Position numbers and translations under genes: made by a program. The notes under the pieces were generated by a model. The model saw only the letters and a list, made by a program, of their open reading frames with translations, was not told the DNA's origin and made no database searches. A DNA stretch of 64,000 nucleotides from Halorutilales archaeon Cl-col2-1. GTDB lineage: Archaea; Halobacteriota; Halobacteria; Halobacteriales; Afararchaeaceae. The stretch spans positions 1,248,001 to 1,312,000 of the forward strand of contig CP169074.1 in the NCBI GenBank assembly GCA_041891055.1, written 5' to 3'. Shown here piece by piece: positions 14,763 through 55,205 of the stretch; position 1 is the stretch's first letter; every line of letters begins with the position of its first letter.

Positions 14763-14850
14763 AGAGCTTTGCTCTCGTTGGCTCAGAAATCAAAGATTTC
14801 TGAACGTATGCAAATCGAAGATTTGCTTGCACACTAATCAGAGATTAGCG
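14763..14850. repeat. Array of four triloop mini-hairpins (REP-like)
   Basis: AGAGC-TTT-GCTCT, TCAGAAATC-AAA-GATTTCTGA, GCAAATC-GAA-GATTTGC, CTAATC-AGA-GATTAG. Near-identical to 29796-29858. Confidence 0.9.
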
Positions 14851-29698: not shown

Positions 29699-29770
29699 CT
29701 ACTATTAACCCAGATCACAGGCATATATGAGTTGTGATTCCTGTACAGTTTACCCCAAAATACAGATGGA

Positions 29771-29909
29771 TAATCAAAGATTAGCGAACGTTACGAGAGC
29801 TTTGCTCTCGCTGGCTCGGAAATCGAAGATTTGCTTGCACGCTAATCAGAGATTAGCGAACGTCCCGAGATCTACGATTCTGTTCTATGCAAATTTCAGA
29901 GAAATTTGC
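29771..29909. repeat. Array of five triloop mini-hairpins (same family as 14763-14850)
   Basis: TAATC-AAA-GATTA, CGAGAGC-TTT-GCTCTCG, AAATC-GAA-GATTT, GCTAATC-AGA-GATTAGC, GCAAATTTC-AGA-GAAATTTGC. Confidence 0.9.
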
Positions 29910-30180: not shown

Positions 30181-33100
30181 ATGGTAATTGAAGGTGCTAT
30201 CGCAAGTCTTCTAGTCGAAGTCGGTACTAACGCTGCCTCAAAGGCTTACGACTGGTACGACGACAGAGAACGGAGCAGCCGTATATCAGAAAACCTCAAC
30301 GACCTTGAAACTGAGTTCAACGACAGACTAGGTAAACGTATACAAGAGAGAGCAAACGACGACGACATAGACAGCACGAGCCTACTTCAGGTCGGATGGA
30401 AATGGAAAAATGTCGCCGACAGGGTGGACGTCTACGAACTCAGTTTTGAGGACGAGAGAGAAGCAGTAGACGAAATTACAGAGAGGATAGTTGAAACGGT
30501 AAATGCCGATACAGATACGTTCGGTGGAACAGAGCTCGACGAGAGTGATGAACAGGAGTTGCACGACATTCTTTCCGACGAATTCGCTGAAGCTACCGAA
30601 CAGTTCCGTGAAACAGTCGAAGGAAACCAAAAGCTACAGGACAAACTCCAGAACGACCTGAATGTCCAGATACTTGAGGAACTCAGAGAGATGCAGGAAT
30701 CGTTCGCAAGACTCAACGCGACACCGTACGACGTATACGACTTCCCCGAGGAACGTGACAAGATCCTCGAAAAGCTGGACAAGACATTCATCAAAGAGGA
30801 CGAAGCCCCTGAGTTCATCGAGAGAAACGACGGAACAGTACCCGACGACCACAAACCTGCTAAGCACTTCGTCGTCGGCCCGTCGGGTTCCGGTAAGAGC
30901 CGTATAGTCTTCGAGCGCTTAAAGCGTCTGTCGGACGACAGCCTGGCTCACATCATGGTACCTGACAAGGGCATGCTCTCACCATCAGATGCCTCGGGGC
31001 TGGCACGTGAGTCGTTCGACGGCGACTTACTGTTAGTCTGGGGGGACGTACACAGAGTAGCTCTGGATCAGGAAAATGCTTTCGTGAAAGACGTCCTGAC
31101 GAAGCTTGACGACGCACTCACAGAGCAGGGGCACAGTCTGCACACTCTCTTAGAGGCTCGCTCTGATAAGCTCGACAGCCTGACGGGGAACCTACCCGAT
31201 GACTTTAACAACGAGTTCTCGAAGAGCATCTGGACCGAGTATGAACCCATCTGGACAGAGGAACTCGATGAGGCAGTTCTGTACAGGATGGTAGGGGCAA
31301 TGGCGGAGAAGTACGGTGTCGAGATGGACGAAGAGGCACGCGATGCACTTGTCGAAAAGACCAACGACTCGAAGTCCGCACCGGAATATATAGACGCGGC
31401 ACTATCGACCGTACACGACGAGGATGGCGAACTGACTGTCGAAGACGTAGAAGAACTTTCGGAGACAGTCGAAGAAATGTGGCAGGAAAACTACGACTAC
31501 TTACGGGACGAATCCCCCAAGGAGTGGAATATTCTCCTCTCTATGAAGGCTCTCTACGACCTGAACGTGCTCCCGTACTCGCGCCTCGTTCGTTGCCTAT
31601 ACCTCGAGGTGTTTAACGGAGACAGGGGAGTGTTCAAGCCCGCGGTGAAATCCCTAAGCGACGGTCGACGGTGGGTAAACGTCGTGAGAGAAGGTAACTC
31701 CGCCGATGAAGTTCTAGAAGATGAGGTACGATACGAGATCCATGACACACAGCTTGACGCAGTGAGTTACAGCGCGAAGGACGACGCTGATGAGGTTTCG
31801 GAACTACTGCTCGATGAAACCGCCGACGCGGTTCCGCAGGAGATACAGGCTCGTGTACACTTCTTCGTGGGCAAGTCTCTTCACGAATGGGAGGTAGCTA
31901 AAAAGGCAGCAGTTCATTATGAGAGAAGCATAGCTATAGAGCCTAATACCATAGCCTACAACAACTATGGTATTCTTCTCCATAAGAAGTTAGACAGACC
32001 TGAGGACGCGGAAAAGAAGTATAAGAAAGCAATAAAACATGACCCCGAATACGCCATAGCCTACAACAACTATGGTCTTCTTCTCTATGAGAAGTTAGAC
32101 AGACCTGAGGACGCGGAAAAGAAGTATAAGAAAGCAATAAAACATGACCCCGAACACGCCATAGCCTACTACAACTATGGTAATCTTCTCGCTCGGGAGT
32201 TAGACAGACCTGAGGACGCGGAAAAGAAGTATAAGAAAGCAATAAAACACGACCCCGAATACGCCATAGCCTACACCAACTATGGTAGTCTTCTCGATGA
32301 GAAGTTAGACAGACCTGAGGACGCGGAAAAGAAGTATAAGAAAGCAATAAAACATGACCCCGAATACGCCGATGCCTACAACAACTATGGTAATCTTCTC
32401 TATGAGAAGTTAGACAGACCTGAGGACGCGGAAAAGAAGTATAAGAAAGCAATAAAACATGACCCCGAATACGCCATAGCCTACAACAACTATGGTAATC
32501 TTCTCTATGAGAAGTTAGACAGACCTGAGGACGCGGAAAAGAAGTATAAGAAAGCAATAAAACACGACCCCGAACACGCCAATGCCTACAACAACTATGG
32601 TAGTCTTCTCCATAAGAAGTTAGACAGACCTGAGGACGCGGAAAAGAAGTATAAGAAAGCAATAAAACATGACCCCGAATACGCCATAGCCTACAACAAC
32701 TATGGTAATCTTCTCTATGAGAAGTTAGACAGACCTGAGGACGCGGAAAAGAAGTATAAGAAAGCAATAAAACATGACCCCGAACACGCCGAACCCTACA
32801 ACAACTATGGTAATCTTCTCGATGAGAAGTTAGACAGACCTGAGGACGCGGAAAAGAAGTTTAAGAAAGCAATAAAACACGACCCCGAACACGCCAATGC
32901 CTACAACAACTATGGTATTCTTCTCGATGAGAAGTTAGACAGACCTGAGGACGCGGAAAAGAAGTTTAAGAAAGCAATAAAACACGACCCCGAATACGCC
33001 ATAGCCTACAACAACTATGGTCTTCTTCTCCATAAGAAGTTAGACAGACCTGAGGACGCGGAAAAGAAGTATAAGAAAGCAATAAAACATGACCCCGAAT

Positions 33101-34215
33101 ACGCCGATGCCTACAACAACTATGGTAATCTTCTCTATGAGAAGTTAGACAGACCTGAGGACGCGGAAAAGAAGTATAAGAAAGCAATAAAACACGACCC
33201 CGAAAACGCCGATGCCTACAACAACTATGGTAGTCTTCTCGATGAGAAGTTAGACAGACCTGAGGACGCGGAAAAGAAGTATAAGAAAGCAATAAAACAC
33301 GACCCCGAACACGCCAATGCCTACTACAACTATGGTAATCTTCTCTATGAGAAGTTAGACAGACCTGAGGACGCGGAAAAGAAGTATAAGAAAGCAATAA
33401 AACATGACCCCGAATACGCCGATGCCTACAACAACTATGGTAATCTTCTCTATGAGAAGTTAGACAGACCTGAGGACGCGGAAAAGAAGTTTAAGAAAGC
33501 AATAAAACACGACCCCGAATACGCCAATGCCTACAACAACTATGGTAGTCTTCTCCGTAAGAAGTTAGACAGACCTGAGGACGCGGAAAAGAAGTTTAAG
33601 AAAGCGATTAATCTATTCAGACAGAAGGGCAAAACTCAGCACCTTCTGGTCAGTCTGCGTGGCTTAGTCAGCCTGTCAATGGAGTTAGGACAATGGGAAA
33701 CAGTAACTGAAAACTGTGAACTTGCTCTCGAAGTACTCGAGGAAGCACCTCAACTCGACCCTGATGGGAGCGAACGCCTGTGGTTCAAGAGCATGAGAGT
33801 ACTGTCGAAAGAAGATACTATCGAGATTTATAGACACGGGCTTGAGAATGTCGAAGCGTCGCAAGGGAATATGGCTTTCCGCCTCTTTGAGCACGCTTGG
33901 GAGAGACGCGACGAACACGTCGATGGTTCACAGTCGTACAGCGCGGCGGTATCGGCGGGCGTCGCACTCGCGGCGCACTTAGATATGGGTGTAAAATCGT
34001 CGCGTACCGTTGACGGAATAATCGCCGAGATAGACGCCGACGACCTGTCAGGATCTCAGAAGGCTGTCTACGACGAAGTCCATCCAGATCGCGAGACGGA
34101 TGTGACGCCTAAGGGTATATTCGAATCTGCCGAACAGTACGAGAGTCTCGGTCTAGATGGAGCGGCTTTTGAGGCTCGGGTCTTCGGAAAGATACTCGGG
34201 GCTTTGAAATCGTGA
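30181..34215 (+). CDS. STAND/NLR-like P-loop protein with 16 highly conserved TPR units
   Basis: Helical N-terminal domain; Walker A VVGPSGSGKS; Walker B-like LLLVWGD; TPR array; C-terminal helical domain; 1344 aa. Confidence 0.8.
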   Translation: MVIEGAIASLLVEVGTNAASKAYDWYDDRERSSRISENLNDLETEFNDRLGKRIQERANDDDIDSTSLLQVGWKWKNVADRVDVYELSFEDEREAVDEITERIVETVNADTDTFGGTELDESDEQELHDILSDEFAEATEQFRETVEGNQKLQDKLQNDLNVQILEELREMQESFARLNATPYDVYDFPEERDKILEKLDKTFIKEDEAPEFIERNDGTVPDDHKPAKHFVVGPSGSGKSRIVFERLKRLSDDSLAHIMVPDKGMLSPSDASGLARESFDGDLLLVWGDVHRVALDQENAFVKDVLTKLDDALTEQGHSLHTLLEARSDKLDSLTGNLPDDFNNEFSKSIWTEYEPIWTEELDEAVLYRMVGAMAEKYGVEMDEEARDALVEKTNDSKSAPEYIDAALSTVHDEDGELTVEDVEELSETVEEMWQENYDYLRDESPKEWNILLSMKALYDLNVLPYSRLVRCLYLEVFNGDRGVFKPAVKSLSDGRRWVNVVREGNSADEVLEDEVRYEIHDTQLDAVSYSAKDDADEVSELLLDETADAVPQEIQARVHFFVGKSLHEWEVAKKAAVHYERSIAIEPNTIAYNNYGILLHKKLDRPEDAEKKYKKAIKHDPEYAIAYNNYGLLLYEKLDRPEDAEKKYKKAIKHDPEHAIAYYNYGNLLARELDRPEDAEKKYKKAIKHDPEYAIAYTNYGSLLDEKLDRPEDAEKKYKKAIKHDPEYADAYNNYGNLLYEKLDRPEDAEKKYKKAIKHDPEYAIAYNNYGNLLYEKLDRPEDAEKKYKKAIKHDPEHANAYNNYGSLLHKKLDRPEDAEKKYKKAIKHDPEYAIAYNNYGNLLYEKLDRPEDAEKKYKKAIKHDPEHAEPYNNYGNLLDEKLDRPEDAEKKFKKAIKHDPEHANAYNNYGILLDEKLDRPEDAEKKFKKAIKHDPEYAIAYNNYGLLLHKKLDRPEDAEKKYKKAIKHDPEYADAYNNYGNLLYEKLDRPEDAEKKYKKAIKHDPENADAYNNYGSLLDEKLDRPEDAEKKYKKAIKHDPEHANAYYNYGNLLYEKLDRPEDAEKKYKKAIKHDPEYADAYNNYGNLLYEKLDRPEDAEKKFKKAIKHDPEYANAYNNYGSLLRKKLDRPEDAEKKFKKAINLFRQKGKTQHLLVSLRGLVSLSMELGQWETVTENCELALEVLEEAPQLDPDGSERLWFKSMRVLSKEDTIEIYRHGLENVEASQGNMAFRLFEHAWERRDEHVDGSQSYSAAVSAGVALAAHLDMGVKSSRTVDGIIAEIDADDLSGSQKAVYDEVHPDRETDVTPKGIFESAEQYESLGLDGAAFEARVFGKILGALKS
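31951..33606 (+). repeat. Coding tandem repeat, 105-bp unit (35 aa), 15 full units plus one partial
   Basis: Unit starts at 31951, 32056 ... 33526, with an exact 105-bp period. Confidence 0.97.
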
Positions 34216-34283: not shown

Positions 34284-35306
34284 GGCTCCATTGAATCACT
34301 AGACTGCGTCGGTGCGGGTCGGTAAATCAAAGGGGTTGAAGCGGGTAAGTAGTGGCTTGCATGAACCTTACAACCCGCTTCACTGAGGAGATGGTGTCGC
34401 TGGCCAAAAGTTATTGCGACGATCCCGACGAAGCTGCCTCCCCAGAAGGCGGCGGCAGCTTCGCGGAATACGCGATGATTCCCCTCCACAGGCTGCGAAT
34501 TTTCCTCGATGAGACCTACGAGATGATTATCGACCGGCTAGAGGTAATGCCGCCAATTCTGGAGATCGTCGGGCTCAAGACCGACGATCTTCCGCATCCA
34601 TCGACGTTGAATAAGTGCTTGATAGGATCGTAACGCAGGTCTGGCGCGTGCTGCTGCGCCACTCGGCGCAGCTGCACGCCCCATCGCCTCACGTCGCCGT
34701 TGACGCAACGTACTACGAGCGGTCACCGGCGAGCAAGCACTACTGCGACCGCACGAACTACCGCGTTCAGACGGTTGAAGCGACGAAACTCGTCGATACA
34801 GAGACGCAAGCGATCTTAGACGTGCATTGCACGACCACCCGAGAAGGAAGCGACGCAGAGGTCTGTGCGCAACTCGCCCGCCGGTACGCGGGCGAGTTGC
34901 AGACCCTTGCCGCAGACAAGGGCTATGATAGCCAACCGTTGCGTGACACCCTCCGAGAGATGGGCATACGTCCGCTCGTGAAACATCGCGTCTTCGCTCC
35001 GTACGACCACGCGCACAACGCACGAATCGAGGATGATCTCTACAATCAGCGCTCAATGACGGAGACAGTGAACTCGTCGGTCAAGCGCTCGTACGGCTCT
35101 GCCGTCCGAGCGCGTGAATGGTACCGTGAGTTCCGTGAGATCGTCCTGATGTGTCTCGTCTACAACATTGAAGGTGCTATTTCCTCTCCTACCTGCCAAC
35201 TTTGAGTGATTGAGTCGAATTCTCCTCGAAACTCCCCAATCAAAGCTGGGAGAGCTATCACAAGGTAGTAAGCAATTCCGCTTCACTCTGCGGATTCAAT
35301 AGGGCC
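34284..35306 (+). mobile_element. IS5-family (haloarchaeal ISH1/ISH9-like) element with frameshifted transposase
   Basis: Ends GGCTCCATTGAATC / GATTCAATAGGGCC. Transposase split between ORFs 34361-34633 and 34615-35205 (DATYY, ADKGYD, QRSMTETV); C-terminus aberrant. Confidence 0.88.
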
Positions 35307-45705: not shown

Positions 45706-45816
45706 TCCAGTTCTGTTGGATCATTAGGATGATTGGTATTGATGTGATTAGTTACAAAATCCTGATCTGAATTGACCTGCAACTACAGTATCTTAACTGA
45801 TGGTTTTGATGAATAG

Positions 45817-46090
45817 GGCTTTGGTGAATCGCCATACGCAGCTTGATCTACTGTTTTACCGCATGTTTGATGTTGTAGACAGAGCAGATCAAGACGAGTT
45901 CACGAAATTCTCTGTACCAGGCACGCGCATGCTCGGCACAGCCGTGCGTGCGCTTGATGTTTGAGAAGACGGTTTCAGACATAGATCTTTGACCGTAGAG
46001 AGCCCCATCGATTCTGGTGTCGCAAATCTGAGATTTGCGTACATCCAAAAATCGGAGATTCTTGGGAAGATTACTTTGAAAAATCTGGAG
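45817..46090 (-). pseudogene. 3' fragment of IS5-family element ending within a hairpin cassette
   Basis: TIR GGCTTTGGTGAATC at 45817; encodes TRIDGALYGQRSMSETVFSNIKRT...WYREFRELV; homologous to 51287-51583. Confidence 0.88.
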
Positions 46091-49200: not shown

Positions 49201-51249
49201 TTATCGTGCTGCCCTTCGACCGAGGATGAACACGAGCAGGGCAAGCATCACTGCTCCAAAGCCTGTCTCAAGCGTCGTCAACAGTCGTCCGAGGCCAACC
49301 GGCTGGAAGTCACCGAATCCGAGCGCCGTGTACGTCAGTGTCGAGTAGTAGACCGAGTTGAGAATCTCGATAGGGTTGGACACAATCTGTGCGTAGGTAA
49401 TCGGGTCACTGTCTGCCGGTTTCATCCATCCTCCGAGCGGATACAGAAGTGCGAACGAGAAGATGATACCGAGGCTCCACGCGATGACGCGCCACGGACT
49501 CTCGCCGTAGAGCAGTGTCGCTCGTGCCACCTTCGCTCGACCCCACCGAGCGCCCGCTATGAACTGTTCTTCAAGTGAGGCGTCATTTGCTGTGGCATCA
49601 TCCCAGTAGTCCTGCTTCTGGAGGTCTTGCCGTCGGACAAACGAGCGAGCCTGTAACCGAGGGCGGGCGTGCTTTCCTCCGAGTTCCTCAAACGCTCGGT
49701 AGACGCTTTTCGCTTTATCTATGTCTTCATATTGGTTATTGTCTTCATAGTCAGGGTCATAGACGCAAGTCGAAGGTGAACGGATAGCCGAGAAAGTATG
49801 TGGGGATGTATTGCCGTCATCGGAAGGATGGCCAAGGAGTTTTGTTTTGTCATCAATTCTGGCATCACCCAATAGGGCACCTGAAAGACGACAGCCACTC
49901 ATATCTGCGCCCAGAAGAACAGTCCTGTTTAATTCTGCATTTTCAAAGTTAGATCTGCCTAATTTTGTATTATCGAAAGAACAGCCCGAGCAGTCTGAAC
50001 TACTAAAATTAGCGCCCTCAAAGTTAGTATCTGAGAAGTCTGAGTTAGCCACATCTGACTCTGAGAAATTAGGAGAATTTTGGAAAGTTACAGCTATATC
50101 TTCTGTAGTAGAAAAGTCAGAATCTCTAATATCGGATTTAGAAAACATAGCATCAGACCTAAAAACTGTTTTAGATTTGTCAATATTGGCATCTCCGCCG
50201 AATTGACCTCCTTCACGCATCGTCACTCTTGAAAAATCAGCATCTCCGATAAATTCACATCCGCAAAATTTACCATAGCCTAAATATGACGAGCGGAATT
50301 CTGCCCGTCCATCAAACAACGACTCTGTAAAATCAGCTCTTCCTCTAAACCTTGTATTAGTAAAACAAACAGACCGATTGATAGAACCTCCGTCATTTTC
50401 ACAAAATTCAGATCCTCTGAATGAAGATGAGGAATTGAAATTCGCATTCCTAAAATTGGCCGATTCATTAAAATTTGACCTAAGGAAATTCACTTTATCA
50501 TCAAATTCTGCTTCCTTGAATTTTGCTTTGCAGTTGAATTCGGAAGACGGAAAGTTAGTTCTTAAGTTTACATTTACTTCTCTAAAATCTGCTTCATTTT
50601 GGAAGGTTGCTTTCCCAAAGGCTGCTCCTCTATCAAAAGAGGCCCGATAGAAGTTTGCTTCAGCAAAATATGATTCACGAAACGTGGCTCCTCTGAAAGA
50701 GGTGCGTTCAAATGATGCCCTTCGTTCAAACATTACCTCTCGAAAATATGCACCTTTATTGAAATTGGCACCATCAAAAACAACATCTTCATAAAACTCG
50801 CTGCCATCAAATGATGTTTCATATATAAAACTAGAATAGTTTAGAAACATCTCTATATTTATGCTACAATCCTCTATTCTAACATCGCCCTTGAATTCAG
50901 AACCGATAAAAATAAGCGGAAAATCCGCATTTCCCCCAATTTCTTCTCTTTTTATTATTAAATCATCGAATATACAACCGATAAATTGACCACCTATATA
51001 TTCATATTCGTCTTCCTGGATTACTTTAAATAATTCATCTGACTTATCCTTTTCACTGGGTATTTCATCAAGAGGTAGGTGAAATATACATCTATCTCTA
51101 TTATCCAGTGCTTCAAATGGGCACTCCCAAACGTCTCTGCCGATATTCAACTTATTGAGAATTTTTGGCCAATCTTCAGCGAAGCCACCCCACTCCTGCC
51201 AGTCAGATTGGTCTGCTACAAAAGAGCAGGTGTCTGCCGTGGAACTCAT
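49201..51249 (-). CDS. Pentapeptide-repeat protein fused to K+-channel pore domain
   Basis: CPF..CIFH motif; long pentapeptide tract; YGESPWR; YYSTLTYTALGFGD selectivity filter. Confidence 0.88.
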   Translation of the reverse strand: MSSTADTCSFVADQSDWQEWGGFAEDWPKILNKLNIGRDVWECPFEALDNRDRCIFHLPLDEIPSEKDKSDELFKVIQEDEYEYIGGQFIGCIFDDLIIKREEIGGNADFPLIFIGSEFKGDVRIEDCSINIEMFLNYSSFIYETSFDGSEFYEDVVFDGANFNKGAYFREVMFERRASFERTSFRGATFRESYFAEANFYRASFDRGAAFGKATFQNEADFREVNVNLRTNFPSSEFNCKAKFKEAEFDDKVNFLRSNFNESANFRNANFNSSSSFRGSEFCENDGGSINRSVCFTNTRFRGRADFTESLFDGRAEFRSSYLGYGKFCGCEFIGDADFSRVTMREGGQFGGDANIDKSKTVFRSDAMFSKSDIRDSDFSTTEDIAVTFQNSPNFSESDVANSDFSDTNFEGANFSSSDCSGCSFDNTKLGRSNFENAELNRTVLLGADMSGCRLSGALLGDARIDDKTKLLGHPSDDGNTSPHTFSAIRSPSTCVYDPDYEDNNQYEDIDKAKSVYRAFEELGGKHARPRLQARSFVRRQDLQKQDYWDDATANDASLEEQFIAGARWGRAKVARATLLYGESPWRVIAWSLGIIFSFALLYPLGGWMKPADSDPITYAQIVSNPIEILNSVYYSTLTYTALGFGDFQPVGLGRLLTTLETGFGAVMLALLVFILGRRAAR

Positions 51250-51286: not shown

Positions 51287-52403
51287 GTCTTTGGTGAATC
51301 GCAATACGTAACTTGATTTACTATTTTACAGCATGTTTGATGTTATAGACAGATCAGATCAGAACGAGTTCACGAAATTCTCTGTACCAGGCACGCGCAC
51401 GCACGGCTTCACGAAGCACAGCTTCGTTAGCTGAAAATCTTCGATTTTAAGCAGTGCCGAGCGTGCGCTTGATGTTTGAGAAGACGGTTTCAGACATGGA
51501 TCTTTGACCATAGAAAGACCCATCGATCCTAGTGTCGAAAATCTGAGATTTGCGTACATCCAAAAATCAGAGATTTTTGAATACGTTATGCGCCTGATCG
51601 ATGGGCCGGAACTCACGGTGTTTGATGAGTGGTCTTACGTCTTCTTCTCGTAATTTTTCACGTAGTTTCATCCAGTCATAGCCTTTGTCGGCAGCGAGGG
51701 TATGCAGGTCGCCTGCGTTCCGCAGTGCGACCTGCAAGCCGAGCTGAGTATCATGGCGTTTCTCAGCCGTGCAGTGAAGGTCAAGGACTGCTTGAGTTTC
51801 TGTGTCGACGAGGGCTGTAGCTTTGAGTGTCTGGACACGGTAATTCGTCCTACGGCAGTAGTGTTTGCTAGCGTTTTCTCGGTCGAAGTAAGTAGAGTCC
51901 ATAGCAGTGTGACCGGTGTTGTCGTGTAGTTCCGAGGAGAGACGGAGAAGTACTCGCCATACACCCATCTCTATCCTATCGAATGCTTTGACTAGGGTTG
52001 AATGGTGAGGGAGATCGTCCTCTTCGAGGCCGATCTCCTCAAGAATTCTTGGCATCTCGCTCAACAGATCGAGTGCTTCTCGGTAGGATTTCTCTAAGTA
52101 AATCCGTAGACAGTGGAGAGAAACGATGGCGTAATCCGCGAAGCCGCCACCCTGCTCTGGGGCGGCGGCTTCGCTCCGACCACCAACATCATGAACTCCG
52201 TTCATGAGCCTCAAAGCTCTGCTTTGAGACAGCGTTTTTAGCTAATGTCACGACTCTATCACTGAAGTTAATCGAAGATTCACATGCGTTAGGACACTTG
52301 CGTTCCAAAACGGGAGATTTTGGACATGTCACCGAAAACTTCCCGCTTCATCTCCTTTGCATTAGTGGCTTAACCCAACGCAGTCTAGTGATTCACCAAA
52401 GCT
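51287..52403 (-). mobile_element. IS5-family element whose transposase (52327 to 51321) is interrupted by four hairpin cassettes
   Basis: TIRs CTTTGGTGAATC / GATTCACCAAAG; MSKISR...DSTYFDRENAS...ADKGYD...YNIKHAVK. Inserts at 51411-51455, 51533-51583, 52186-52228 and 52268-52310. Confidence 0.92.
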
Positions 52404-54043
52404 TCTTTAATAATTATTATTATCCCAAGTCCAATAAGAATTACTGGCGAATAAGTAAAAAATATAGACATAACTGGAGGTGAATCTATAAAAGCTGAGG
52501 AGAGTATATTTAAAACTATTCCGAGTAAGATAAGAAAAACCCCATATAAATAATTTATGGTAGTTTTTTCAGAATCATATAGATAATAATATCCTATGTT
52601 TGTAAAAAATAGACTTGCTATGTAAAATGCTAAAACAACGGTAGTAAATGATGAAAAAGAAATAGCTTTGCCTGTTTCAATTATAACTAACAGATCTGAC
52701 CCAAATGCAAGTGATATAAGCTGAAGGGAGAATCCAACAAAGATCCAAATATGCTCGTATTCAACAGATTGAGAGGTTTTACTTTTACTATGGGTTAATT
52801 GAACTGACCAAATTCCAATAATTATAAAAAAAGGCCATAGTAGTCCGAAAGCAATATTAATAGAATCAATATATCTAATTGGAGTTATGATAACATAAAT
52901 CACATGGAGAAAAAATGCAATAATAGATATAGCGTTAAATCCTGGCGGGCGTGTAATCAAATCCTTATTTGAGGCTGTATTCTTTCCATCCCATGTATCA
53001 AGATAATGAGGGAGACGATAAAGTTCTCTTATCCATGCCCAAATACCATAACCAATAGCAAAGAAAATTAGAACTCCACCACCAATTAGATTCCACATAG
53101 ATAACCAATCACGAATTGAAATTGAAGAATTAGAATTAATCAGACTTTCAGCTATATCATCTGAAACTAAATCAAAATATATGGATCCTGTAGAGAATAA
53201 AGCGACGGAGGAAATTATACCCAGAAAAATGAAAAATATCATATTCATTCCAATTGGGCCTCGTGTAGTATTTTCGATAGAGTCAATTAATACTTTTTCA
53301 AAGTCAAATTCAAAGTTCATTAATCGGTTACGGTTAGGTCCTACACTTAATCGAGGAAATAAACGATATGATATTGCCCATCCTAAGAATATAAAATCAG
53401 GAAGTGGATATGAAATCATAGAGATTAGTAATACTACGGCTGCTGCAAACGTGGGAATAAAATAAATAACAGAGGCAAAGGTGAGTAGCAAAGAAGAAGA
53501 ACCAACTATCTTAACCCAGTCTTCTTGATTAAGTTGAGATTTGAATTCCGAGTCCTCAGTTTCTTCTATAGTAAAATGAAGTCGGGTCAAGATTGCTTTA
53601 CCCTGTGGATCAAATAGATCCCAATCACGTACTCTTGATAGATATACAAGGAAAAGAAATCCCACAAATAAATAACTAATAAATAAATATCCTGGGTGAA
53701 GGGAAGAGGGTATGAAATTGGGGAGAGCATAACCGAGAAGATTACCGAATAAAACAGACCCAATAGTGAATATAATCCTAATTCCCGGTTTTTCGTTAGG
53801 AAAGGAAGGAATCTTATTACCAAGATAACTATAAGCCAAGGGTGCGAGATTGTAGAGGGCGACTGCAAACATAAACCAAGTAGTCAAAAGAGCCATTTCT
53901 GACGAGCCGAAAATCCCCCCTGTAATCGAAATAAGTGGAGCGATTAAATCCTCAGGAAGTCGAGTTACAATATCAAGAATTACTGATGCGCCAAGAACAT
54001 CATAACGTGAAGGAAGCCAAGATCTTAACCGCGTTATTTTCAT
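52385..54043 (-). CDS. Very AT-rich polytopic membrane protein, unknown function
   Basis: 552 aa with more than 10 hydrophobic segments. The last codons and stop (ALVNH*) come from the IS end. Confidence 0.75.
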   Translation of the reverse strand: MKITRLRSWLPSRYDVLGASVILDIVTRLPEDLIAPLISITGGIFGSSEMALLTTWFMFAVALYNLAPLAYSYLGNKIPSFPNEKPGIRIIFTIGSVLFGNLLGYALPNFIPSSLHPGYLFISYLFVGFLFLVYLSRVRDWDLFDPQGKAILTRLHFTIEETEDSEFKSQLNQEDWVKIVGSSSLLLTFASVIYFIPTFAAAVVLLISMISYPLPDFIFLGWAISYRLFPRLSVGPNRNRLMNFEFDFEKVLIDSIENTTRGPIGMNMIFFIFLGIISSVALFSTGSIYFDLVSDDIAESLINSNSSISIRDWLSMWNLIGGGVLIFFAIGYGIWAWIRELYRLPHYLDTWDGKNTASNKDLITRPPGFNAISIIAFFLHVIYVIITPIRYIDSINIAFGLLWPFFIIIGIWSVQLTHSKSKTSQSVEYEHIWIFVGFSLQLISLAFGSDLLVIIETGKAISFSSFTTVVLAFYIASLFFTNIGYYYLYDSEKTTINYLYGVFLILLGIVLNILSSAFIDSPPVMSIFFTYSPVILIGLGIIIIIKEALVNH

Positions 54044-55069: not shown

Positions 55070-55205
55070 GGCTTTGGTGGATCGGGCCAATATTACGACT
55101 CTATCAGTGAAGCAGGACATCTTAGACATACCATCAAAGATTTCCCGCTACCTTTCCTTTGAATTAGTGGTTTAATCGCGCGTAGTCCAGTGGTATATCA
55201 GAGCC
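55070..55205 (-). mobile_element. 136-bp internally deleted IS5 derivative (MITE-like)
   Basis: Ends GGCTTTGGTGGATC / ...TCAGAGCC. Aligns with 52250-52403 and encodes MSKMSCFTDRVVILA without the 43-bp insert. Confidence 0.8.

Follow-up and report, generated by a model that had tools for sequence, protein, structure and literature searches.

In the genome of Halorutilales archaeon Cl-col2-1, a non-functional copy of an IS5-family insertion sequence (IS) is interrupted by four short inserts, A to D. The copy lies in the window analyzed here, the 64,000 nucleotides (nt) at positions 1248001-1312000 of CP169074.1, which is chromosome C1 of a 2.06-Mb genome in four contigs (contig C2 is 116 kb). 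The inserts are probably members of a lineage-restricted, non-autonomous family of mobile elements that resembles repetitive extragenic palindromes (REPs) and would be mobilized, in single-stranded form, by a trans-acting enzyme. Units of this family have been gained or lost at otherwise identical sites, their arrays grow, and they enter existing hairpins. Insert boundaries were taken from an alignment of the window copy with two full-length genomic paralogues, C1:304520-305540 and C2:71390-72540. Coordinates without a contig prefix are those of the window.

51287-52403, minus strand: IS5-family insertion sequence, non-functional copy, ends from the three-copy alignment.
51406-51450, minus strand: insert A, 45 nt (boundary ± 2 nt), a double hairpin absent from C1:304520-305540 and from window 45812-46020.
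51533-51583, nominally plus strand: insert B, 51 nt, TGT-hairpin-TACATC-hairpin, absent only from the intact copy.
52187-52229, minus strand: insert C, 43 nt with a 3-nt ACA boundary ambiguity, absent from C1:304520-305540 and C2:71390-72540.
52268-52310, plus strand: insert D, 43 nt, decayed, absent from C1:304520-305540 and from window 55086-55203.
45812-46065, plus strand: truncated copy of the same IS, without A; a B unit occupies 46018-46065 and the copy stops directly after it.
55086-55203, minus strand: a remnant reduced to positions 1-118 of the same IS, with nothing inserted at site D.

The largest open fragment of the window copy matches the Pfam domain DDE_Tnp_1 (3.2e-14), and its transposase frame is disrupted by the four inserts and by one extra stop. 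The paralogue C1:304520-305540 is intact: its open reading frame (ORF) of 283 amino acids (aa) scores 250.5 bits against the IS5 family model NF033579 (cut-off 140), which places the element in this family. A preliminary description of the stretch had reported four inserts in the transposase, and all four exist; the intact paralogue is empty at every one of the four sites, and C2:71390-72540 holds A, B and D and lacks C. Removal of 182 nt from 51321-52327 leaves 825 nt, or 275 codons in one frame, as had been calculated, with an internal stop at codon 264 and the terminal stop. This insert-free frame agrees with the intact protein at 277 of 282 aligned residues. In the original frame of the window copy, A, B and D each bring in a stop, and C causes a frameshift. 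The boundaries first given for B, C and D held (C within 1 nt), that for A was 5 nt off, and the 3-bp ACA noticed at C appears in the alignment as an ambiguity of the boundary. Both empty sites that had been seen within the window, at A in the truncated copy and at D in the remnant, were found again, and the related IS at 34.3 kb (34292-35168) is free of hairpin clusters, as had been stated.

Single-stranded DNA folding gave two hairpins each for A, B and C, with z scores against shuffled sequences of -4.6, -3.8 and -5.6; 0, 1 and 0 of 200 shuffles, respectively, folded as well. Insert D of the window copy gave a z of about 0, and the same insert in the C2 paralogue, 48 nt long, is a perfect double hairpin (z -5.95). 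Insert A is situated within the loop of a native IS5 palindrome with the arms GCGCACGC / GCGTGCGC. No flanking repeat was seen at the junction of B in the copy alignment. Relative to 51385-51470 and to other copies, the truncated copy (45890-45950) has the loop of this palindrome in inverted orientation, a flip of the same kind as those seen in the loops of the units (below).

A BLAST search of the genome with the IS returned two further full-length copies, several deletion derivatives and partial copies. Inserts A and B are common to at least four other copies or derivatives, C to two deletion derivatives and D to at least the C2 copy. The inserts had been taken for four independent insertions into this copy. 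They are separate events, but they are not private to it; their presence in several copies indicates that they were inherited from an ancestor copy, already broken, that went on multiplying. The IS5 copy would thus have been hit four times, would have lost its transposase and would then have multiplied as a passenger, presumably using the transposase of the intact copy.

The inserts were found to be part of a much larger set. Perfect hairpins with a 9-bp stem and a 3-nt loop occur 114 times in C1 and 27 times in C2, compared with 2 and 1 in shuffled sequences, and their number drops sharply for stems longer than 9 bp. The 285 perfect hairpins with a stem of at least 8 bp (202 distinct sequences) share a profile of approximately TC-G-n-A-A-A-T-C / nnn / G-A-T-T-T-n-C-G-A. 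A spacing of 21-28 nt between adjacent hairpin centers was counted 125 times in C1 and 23 in C2. With one mismatch allowed, clusters with a minimum of two hairpins number at least 113: 76 are pairs, 15 triplets and 14 quadruplets, and 8 are bigger, with a maximum of nine. They amount to 303 hairpins and 6931 bp; shuffled C1 yielded 5 pairs. The second hairpin of A is seen again in a unit at C1:464701, and there are further B-type units at C1:35972, 1000838 and 1208598. The preliminary description had noted that the inserts share an architecture and differ in sequence, and this is borne out; they are genuine insertions of one double-hairpin family. It had also proposed a process that writes new, structure-defined cassettes into DNA; this idea is not supported, the inserts being copies or relatives of units elsewhere in the genome.

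Two complementary kinds of loop, GNA (78) and TNC (85), together account for 163 of the 303 hairpins, and 175 hairpins have the loop closure ATC...GAT. On otherwise identical stems, the loop is present in both complements. C(GNA)G triloops form unusually stable DNA mini-hairpins, which would fit a role as single-stranded DNA.

A unit is 43-51 nt long (modal length 48) and consists of two adjacent hairpins with stems of 7-9 bp and 3-nt loops. Its typical form, CGTY-hairpin-GC(CA)-hairpin-RACG, is a head-to-head dimer of tagged palindromes. The consensus from exact sites reads (C)GT, hairpin 1 (often TCnnnAATC nnn GATTnnnGA), GC or GCCA, hairpin 2, (G)AC; the base preceding GT is C at nearly all filled sites. 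Outer YGT...ACR tags are present on both sides of 36 of the 113 clusters and on one side only of 38, compared with 2.4% of random places. The fourth base of the tag is more often T than C in oriented units, so that CGTT or TGTT is the commoner form. Boundaries were fixed to the base at only about ten sites. Apart from GT...AC, these have no inverted terminal repeat, and the ambiguity of their boundaries, 0-5 nt, shows no regular target duplication; nor was there a conserved 4-5 nt target, the left flanks reading gag, cga, cct, ccc and aag and sharing only the C. Neighboring units abut as ...GAC|GT..., and the right end of a unit recreates a junction like the one at which it entered, which leads to tandem arrays.

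Two further groups of these hairpins lie in the window:

14781-14850, minus strand: three clustered hairpins of the ATC-NNN-GAT type that belong to no IS5 copy, with an oriented match at C1:1262805.
29768-29885, minus strand: about five hairpins of this family in an array, with decay in some of them, from the hairpin scan.

No match at the gathering score was obtained with Rfam over the whole window. At 32393-33461, there are seven occurrences of a 19-nt near-palindromic motif, ATCTTCTCTATGAGAAGTT, separated by 105, 210 or 315 nt. They probably represent a tandem repeat that has nothing to do with the double-hairpin units.

The mobility of the units is documented by comparisons of filled and empty sites. 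Within the genome, tnpB paralogues carry zero, one or two units at one and the same site (C2:39400, C1:1161010 and C1:1018840), and a 45-nt unit present at C1:464701 is missing from C2:36490. A sister species of the same genus, G025, whose genes are 89-96% identical, was compared by targeted searches of its 120 contigs. It lacks the 48-nt unit in a KBL/AONS-like gene and that in an M24 peptidase gene, and it shares the unit in a ThiN gene. A Hel308-like gene holds two units in the source genome and three in G025, the extra one being 48 nt long, and both frames are open. Environmental DNA gave the same picture. A contig of two metagenome runs of one study skips the KBL unit exactly (49 nt, with one letter between), and other high-depth contigs of these two runs skip a 97-99-nt two-unit array. 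A contig from a different metagenome study lacks a unit of 47 nt at a tnpB element's left end.

We then asked where the units land. Locations were counted on a crude ORF map that classifies about 90% of the sequence as coding: 54 of the 113 clusters are intergenic, 17 are at ORF edges and 42 are inside ORFs, mostly short ones with a low G+C content at third codon positions (GC3). Since 54 clusters fall in the small part of the map that is not coding, the units avoid genes. Mobile elements are strongly represented. At least 35 of the 113 clusters are inside recognized IS elements, whose share of the genome is a few percent, and 23 lie within 700 bp 3' of a match to the TnpB zinc ribbon. There are 33 such matches, 29 of them in frames of more than 370 aa, and a single tnpA. 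In the 29 tnpB 3' regions that we read, the units are insertions into native element ends. Unit-free paralogues keep a G+C-rich end hairpin that the units split elsewhere: it is intact at C2:113106 and split at C1:682698, and a second comparison shows it intact at C2:36569 and split at both C2:107775 and C1:1767311. These native IS200/IS605-type end hairpins have loops of 4-7 nt, whereas the hairpins of the units are A/T-rich near a triloop. An array of six hairpins directly 3' of the sole tnpA lies between the two arms of a native hairpin, and a version with two hairpins occurs on C2. In G025, a B-type unit lies inside the loop of the hairpin 3' of tnpA. The target is best described as a preference for hairpin-forming DNA. 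The enrichment in IS elements for which the preliminary description had suggested a test was found, above all at IS200/IS605-type ends, but other DNA is hit too. The pattern suggests that the units favor DNA that bears hairpins or tolerates insertion, and not that they act in defense. We considered a rule that units always lie in the sense direction, as do those 3' of tnpB and those in KBL, M24 and ThiN. It was discarded, since in-frame antisense units are present in an ORF at C1:1836609 and in two tnpB genes.

Units were also found inside long open frames, at about ten loci, and every one of them is in frame and free of stops. By comparison, 181 of the 360 unit-frames of 60 non-genic pairs are stop-free. 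In the KBL/AONS-like enzyme, the insert VRKSLISEPGDQGSAD corresponds to a gap in the solved homologues 8s1y and 7poa. The other unit-bearing genes encode the M24 peptidase, ThiN, the Hel308-like helicase and a PolB intein; units are likewise present in two ORFs of high GC3, in the two tnpB genes just mentioned (antisense) and in the C-terminal part of another tnpB. A 48-nt unit adds 16 residues, for example VHQSKIDEPVNQRLTD or AHQSLIDVPVNQRLTD. This uniform state of the genic units is expected if they are translated and only harmless insertions survive, and it argues against their removal as mini-introns or bypass by the ribosome. The dead IS5 copy, with its stops and its frameshift, is under no such frame filter. 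The family-B DNA polymerase gene (C1:641670-646688) contains one or more inteins with a LAGLIDADG-like domain, and its one unit is in frame within the intein part.

The distribution of the family is lineage-restricted. The hairpin pattern gave 66 matches in the source genome, 49 in G025 and at most 15 in each of 299 other genomes sampled from the class; the reversed pattern, used as a control, gave 0-1. A stricter unit pattern matched 22 stretches among the genomes of 185,579 species, namely, 18 in five haloarchaeal or euryarchaeal records and 4 single bacterial matches, and it gave no match in viral contigs. A hairpin of the form TCAGAAATC-NNN-GATTTCTGA occurs at one to four copies per genome in many other haloarchaeal genera without expansion, and is a possible relative of the family, either older or conserved.

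How could such units move? In the mechanism that we favor, a unit would travel as hairpin-forming single-stranded DNA, cut and joined by an enzyme acting in trans. New units land beside or inside hairpins, such as IS200/IS605-type ends, the native IS5 palindrome or other units, the last of these giving rise to arrays; in protein genes, survival is limited to insertions that are in frame and stop-free. The preliminary description had named a REP-like element mobilized in trans as one possibility, and this kind of element fits best. A candidate HUH enzyme is present: the only Y1_Tnp gene, at C1:979038-979397, scores 159.5 bits as an IS200 equivalog and 26.1 against the model NF047646 for REP-associated tyrosine transposases (RAYTs; cut-off 80). 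The search for an enzyme thus turned up this IS200-type TnpA and no RAYT, and the genome profile search found no RVT_1 (reverse transcriptase) domain. TnpA is a possible but doubtful mobilizer, and an enzyme not yet recognized has a similar claim.

Several observations weigh against TnpA or against the mechanism as a whole. A resident IS200/IS605-type (tnpB) element, C1:1766138-1767805, whose ends are fixed by a contig lacking it in two metagenome runs of one study, is inserted 3' of ...CTTAT and ends in ...GTCAA. These ends are in the canonical style of the IS200/IS605 family, as in IS608 (TTAC and TCAA). The units, unlike the resident element, have no conserved target in the left flank, and their hairpins are unlike the native end hairpins. 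Only 2-3 nt separate the foot of the hairpin from the end of the unit, so that guide sequences would have little space. No Y1_Tnp match was obtained in two genomes in which the pattern occurs 12 and 9 times, and a third has only broken copies. In G025, a tnpA (Y1) gene is itself broken soon after its start by four hairpins (two units), at approximately positions 1823-1919 of the stretch G025:C7:66630-69139. The missing target, the dissimilar hairpins, the genomes without Y1 and the broken gene of G025 are the reasons for our reserve about TnpA. In two of the three comparisons between species, filled and empty sites do not agree in the base beside the junction. The insertion sites in KBL and M24 have no obvious palindrome, unlike the hairpin targets described above. 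The orientation of the units on C1 is also uneven, with 19 of 25 on the plus strand below 1.05 Mb and 17 of 21 on the minus strand above it.

Two lines of evidence were tried and set aside. Co-occurrence of TnpA with the units, proposed earlier as a way to find the enzyme, is not decisive: of five hairpin-rich genomes, three have Y1_Tnp (one of them only in broken form) and two have none. Nor can the orientation bias be read as replication-coupled insertion, which would have been a sign of single-strand transposition. The flip near 1.05 Mb is away from the sole chromosomal orc1/cdc6 gene (1.52 Mb) and from the extremes of the GC skew (0.12 and 1.5 Mb). A mild gene-strand bias flips near 1.05 Mb as well.

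The mobile-element reading has to be weighed against four others. That the inserts are removed after transcription as mini-introns, or skipped by the ribosome, so that the interrupted genes still work, is scarcely credible. In yeast mitochondria, short hairpin-rich inserts are skipped in translation, and the lengths of A, of B and of D in its 48-nt form are divisible by three. Yet the open frames of the genic units would be unneeded if the units were removed, and A, B and D contain in-frame stops and C a frameshift in an IS copy that has an extra stop besides. A host weapon against IS elements, which would break transposase genes and the end hairpins of IS200/IS605-type elements, had been raised in the preliminary description, and we consider it very unlikely. 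It would account for the share of clusters in recognized IS elements, for the split tnpB end hairpins and for the broken transposase genes of IS5 and of tnpA in G025, and a similar idea has been published for the SMR-A elements of Haloquadratum, as far as the portion of that paper used here goes (PMC3119063). On the other hand, 29 of the 33 tnpB matches are still in frames of more than 370 aa, the broken IS5 kept multiplying, and plain intergenic DNA and about ten protein genes, housekeeping genes included, are hit too. Neutral tolerance combined with a preference for hairpins accounts for the enrichment.

The units could instead be terminal-only derivatives of IS200/IS605-type elements, moved by TnpA, that is, palindrome-associated transposable elements (PATEs) in the Haloquadratum sense. 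The absence of inverted terminal repeats and of target duplication, the palindromes near the ends, the presence of about 30 tnpB genes and one tnpA in the genome and the 23 clusters just 3' of tnpB are all as expected for PATEs, and terminal-only PATEs of 52 bp and strain-specific insertions are on record in the part of the Haloquadratum report consulted (PMC3119063). However, empty paralogues indicate that the units near tnpB were inserted later into the element ends and are not these ends; in addition, the hairpins of the units differ from the native ones, and the units lack the targeting oligonucleotide that the resident element has. We therefore regard this origin as unlikely, although less so than a host weapon. 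Somewhat better placed, while still rather improbable, is a spread without any transposase, in which a polymerase that has stalled at a hairpin would take an ectopic unit as its template and, having copied it, go back (copy-choice or microhomology-mediated templated insertion); template switching within a hairpin would at the same time keep stems perfect and flip loops. Such copying agrees with the landing of units in or beside existing hairpins without a conserved target or regular duplication, with the many pairings of hairpin types, with both loop complements on identical stems and with the inverted loop of the native palindrome in one IS5 copy. Junction identity amounts to 2 nt at A, 3 at C, 2-3 at KBL and M24 and 5 at C1:464701, and REPs of the CGTC type have been reported without a dedicated transposase in the account available to us (PMC3733652). 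A spread of this kind is at odds with the sharp, recurrent ends of the units (CGTY...RACG) and with the lack of junction identity at B, D and the C1:1161010 unit, and it would be hard to start at KBL and M24, which have no evident local palindrome; exact junctions number about ten. Movement of the units as single-stranded DNA in trans thus remains the reading that we prefer.

Apart from the units, the surroundings of the IS in the window have features of their own. The window has a G+C content of 50.6%, compared with 55.4% for the chromosome. Adjoining the IS, 49201-51249 (minus strand) encodes a 682-aa ORF whose translation contains long runs like pentapeptide repeats and a hydrophobic C-terminal part like an ion-channel pore. 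Beside the IS on the other side, 52385-54043 is a very A+T-rich ORF for a 552-aa membrane protein. The region may be an island of foreign DNA.

REPs, BIMEs and REPINs are small hairpin repeats found as singles, pairs and mosaic arrays, non-autonomous and of lineage-specific copy number, and our units are like them in all of these respects. The movement of REPs, BIMEs and REPINs is presumed to involve single-stranded DNA and an HUH/Y1 enzyme. The GTAG-tagged REP/REPIN-RAYT type does not apply, since the position logos of the hairpins have no GTAG tag and the genome has no RAYT; moreover, the two differing hairpins of a unit fold side by side and not, as in a REPIN, into one long hairpin. In fungal mitochondria, double-hairpin elements and GC clusters are short mobile inserts of two hairpins with the same architecture and differing sequences. 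They belong to a different genetic system, and the likeness is one of architecture alone. The units are not MITEs (miniature transposable elements with inverted repeats) either, as there is no terminal inverted repeat or transposon target duplication and their ends are unrelated to those of IS5.

The closest likeness is to the CGTC-tagged REPs. In the sections of the account by Di Nocera, De Gregorio and Rocco (2013, PMC3733652) on which we rely, these are short palindromes with an unpaired CGTC (also TGTC or CCTC) tag, stems of 8-9 bp and loops of 4-5 nt, mostly arranged as head-to-head dimers with the tags outside and rarely as clusters. They are said there to include RPE-4 and RPE-6 of Rickettsia and dRS3 of Neisseria, and to form heterogeneous families, some of them intragenic and some present as dimers within palindromes, for which the same sections know of no dedicated transposase. 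Our units have comparable stems of 7-9 bp; an outer YGT...ACR tag flanks 36 of the 113 clusters on both sides, dimers are in the majority (76 of the 113) and intragenic copies occur at about ten loci. They differ from this description in their loops (3 nt as detected, in place of 4-5), in the distance of only 2-4 nt between partners, in the frequency of clusters of at least three hairpins (37 of 113), in a tag that is more often CGTT or TGTT and in their archaeal host, only bacteria being named in those sections. They also differ in that they come to be at the ends of transposase genes through targeting them.

As described in the portion of Dyall-Smith et al. (2011, PMC3119063) used here, the PATEs of Haloquadratum walsbyi have their end palindromes, and a targeting sequence of 4-6 nt, in common with IS605-type elements. 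SMR-A measures about 110 bp, has prominent inverted terminal repeats and lies within near-terminal palindromes of IS605-type elements; its mobilization is called 'enigmatic' there. To judge from these descriptions, our units resemble both in being haloarchaeal, free of a transposase, without target duplication and linked to IS605-type elements, and the 52-bp PATEs also seem to be mobile. Unlike PATEs, the units share neither end palindromes nor a targeting sequence with such elements, although they agree in lacking terminal repeats and duplications. With SMR-A they have in common the insertion without duplication into near-terminal palindromes of IS605-type elements, but they measure only 43-51 nt and have at most GT...AC at their ends. 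The Rickettsia palindromic elements (RPEs), according to the excerpt of PMC10969869 considered here, are about 150 bp long, form ten families in an obligate intracellular bacterium and lie in frame in unrelated housekeeping genes, where they encode a recurring peptide. The units are likewise palindromic selfish DNA in frame in housekeeping genes, at a third of the size and in a free-living archaeon. As in RPEs, they are stop-free, and some are absent from orthologues, the KBL and M24 units being missing in G025.

No known kind of element thus matches the units in full; the nearest are the CGTC-tagged REP dimers, the Rickettsia RPEs and the PATE/SMR group. In our literature searches, we found no published description of the family, and the Haloquadratum and REP repeats were compared by description only, so that an overlap is possible. 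The main text describing one organism that holds the strict motif is silent on transposases, insertion sequences, repeats, palindromes, hairpins and mobile DNA. What we describe is an archaeal, very small triloop double-hairpin repeat that is polymorphic among close relatives, targets the hairpins of TnpB elements and is tolerated in essential genes. We suggest, tentatively, that it may represent the first archaeal family of tagged, REP-dimer-like elements, at about 48 nt among the smallest mobile DNAs, recently active, homing to hairpins and inserting 16 residues into essential enzymes.

Palindromic repeats with tags, and coding palindromes of the Rickettsia type, were recognized decades ago, and the mobilizer of the CGTC class is left open in the relevant part of the published account (PMC3733652). 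The present family offers a very clean state: exact empty and filled sites can be had inside one genome, from its sister species and from environmental DNA. Since this genome is small, contains only one HUH/Y1 transposase and lacks a reverse transcriptase, the family could reveal how the CGTC-type REPs that lack a transposase, and the RPEs, move. If our reading is true, the answer would be either an ordinary IS200 TnpA, or else an unrecognized hairpin-specific enzyme or replication-based copying. The units at the end hairpins of TnpB elements also matter to users of haloarchaeal TnpB guide RNAs. To judge from the sequences, ordinary enzymes would tolerate 16-48 extra residues encoded by units. 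Selfish DNA of less than 50 nt could in this way reshape both mobile elements and proteins, and the family would provide a tractable route to the mechanism.

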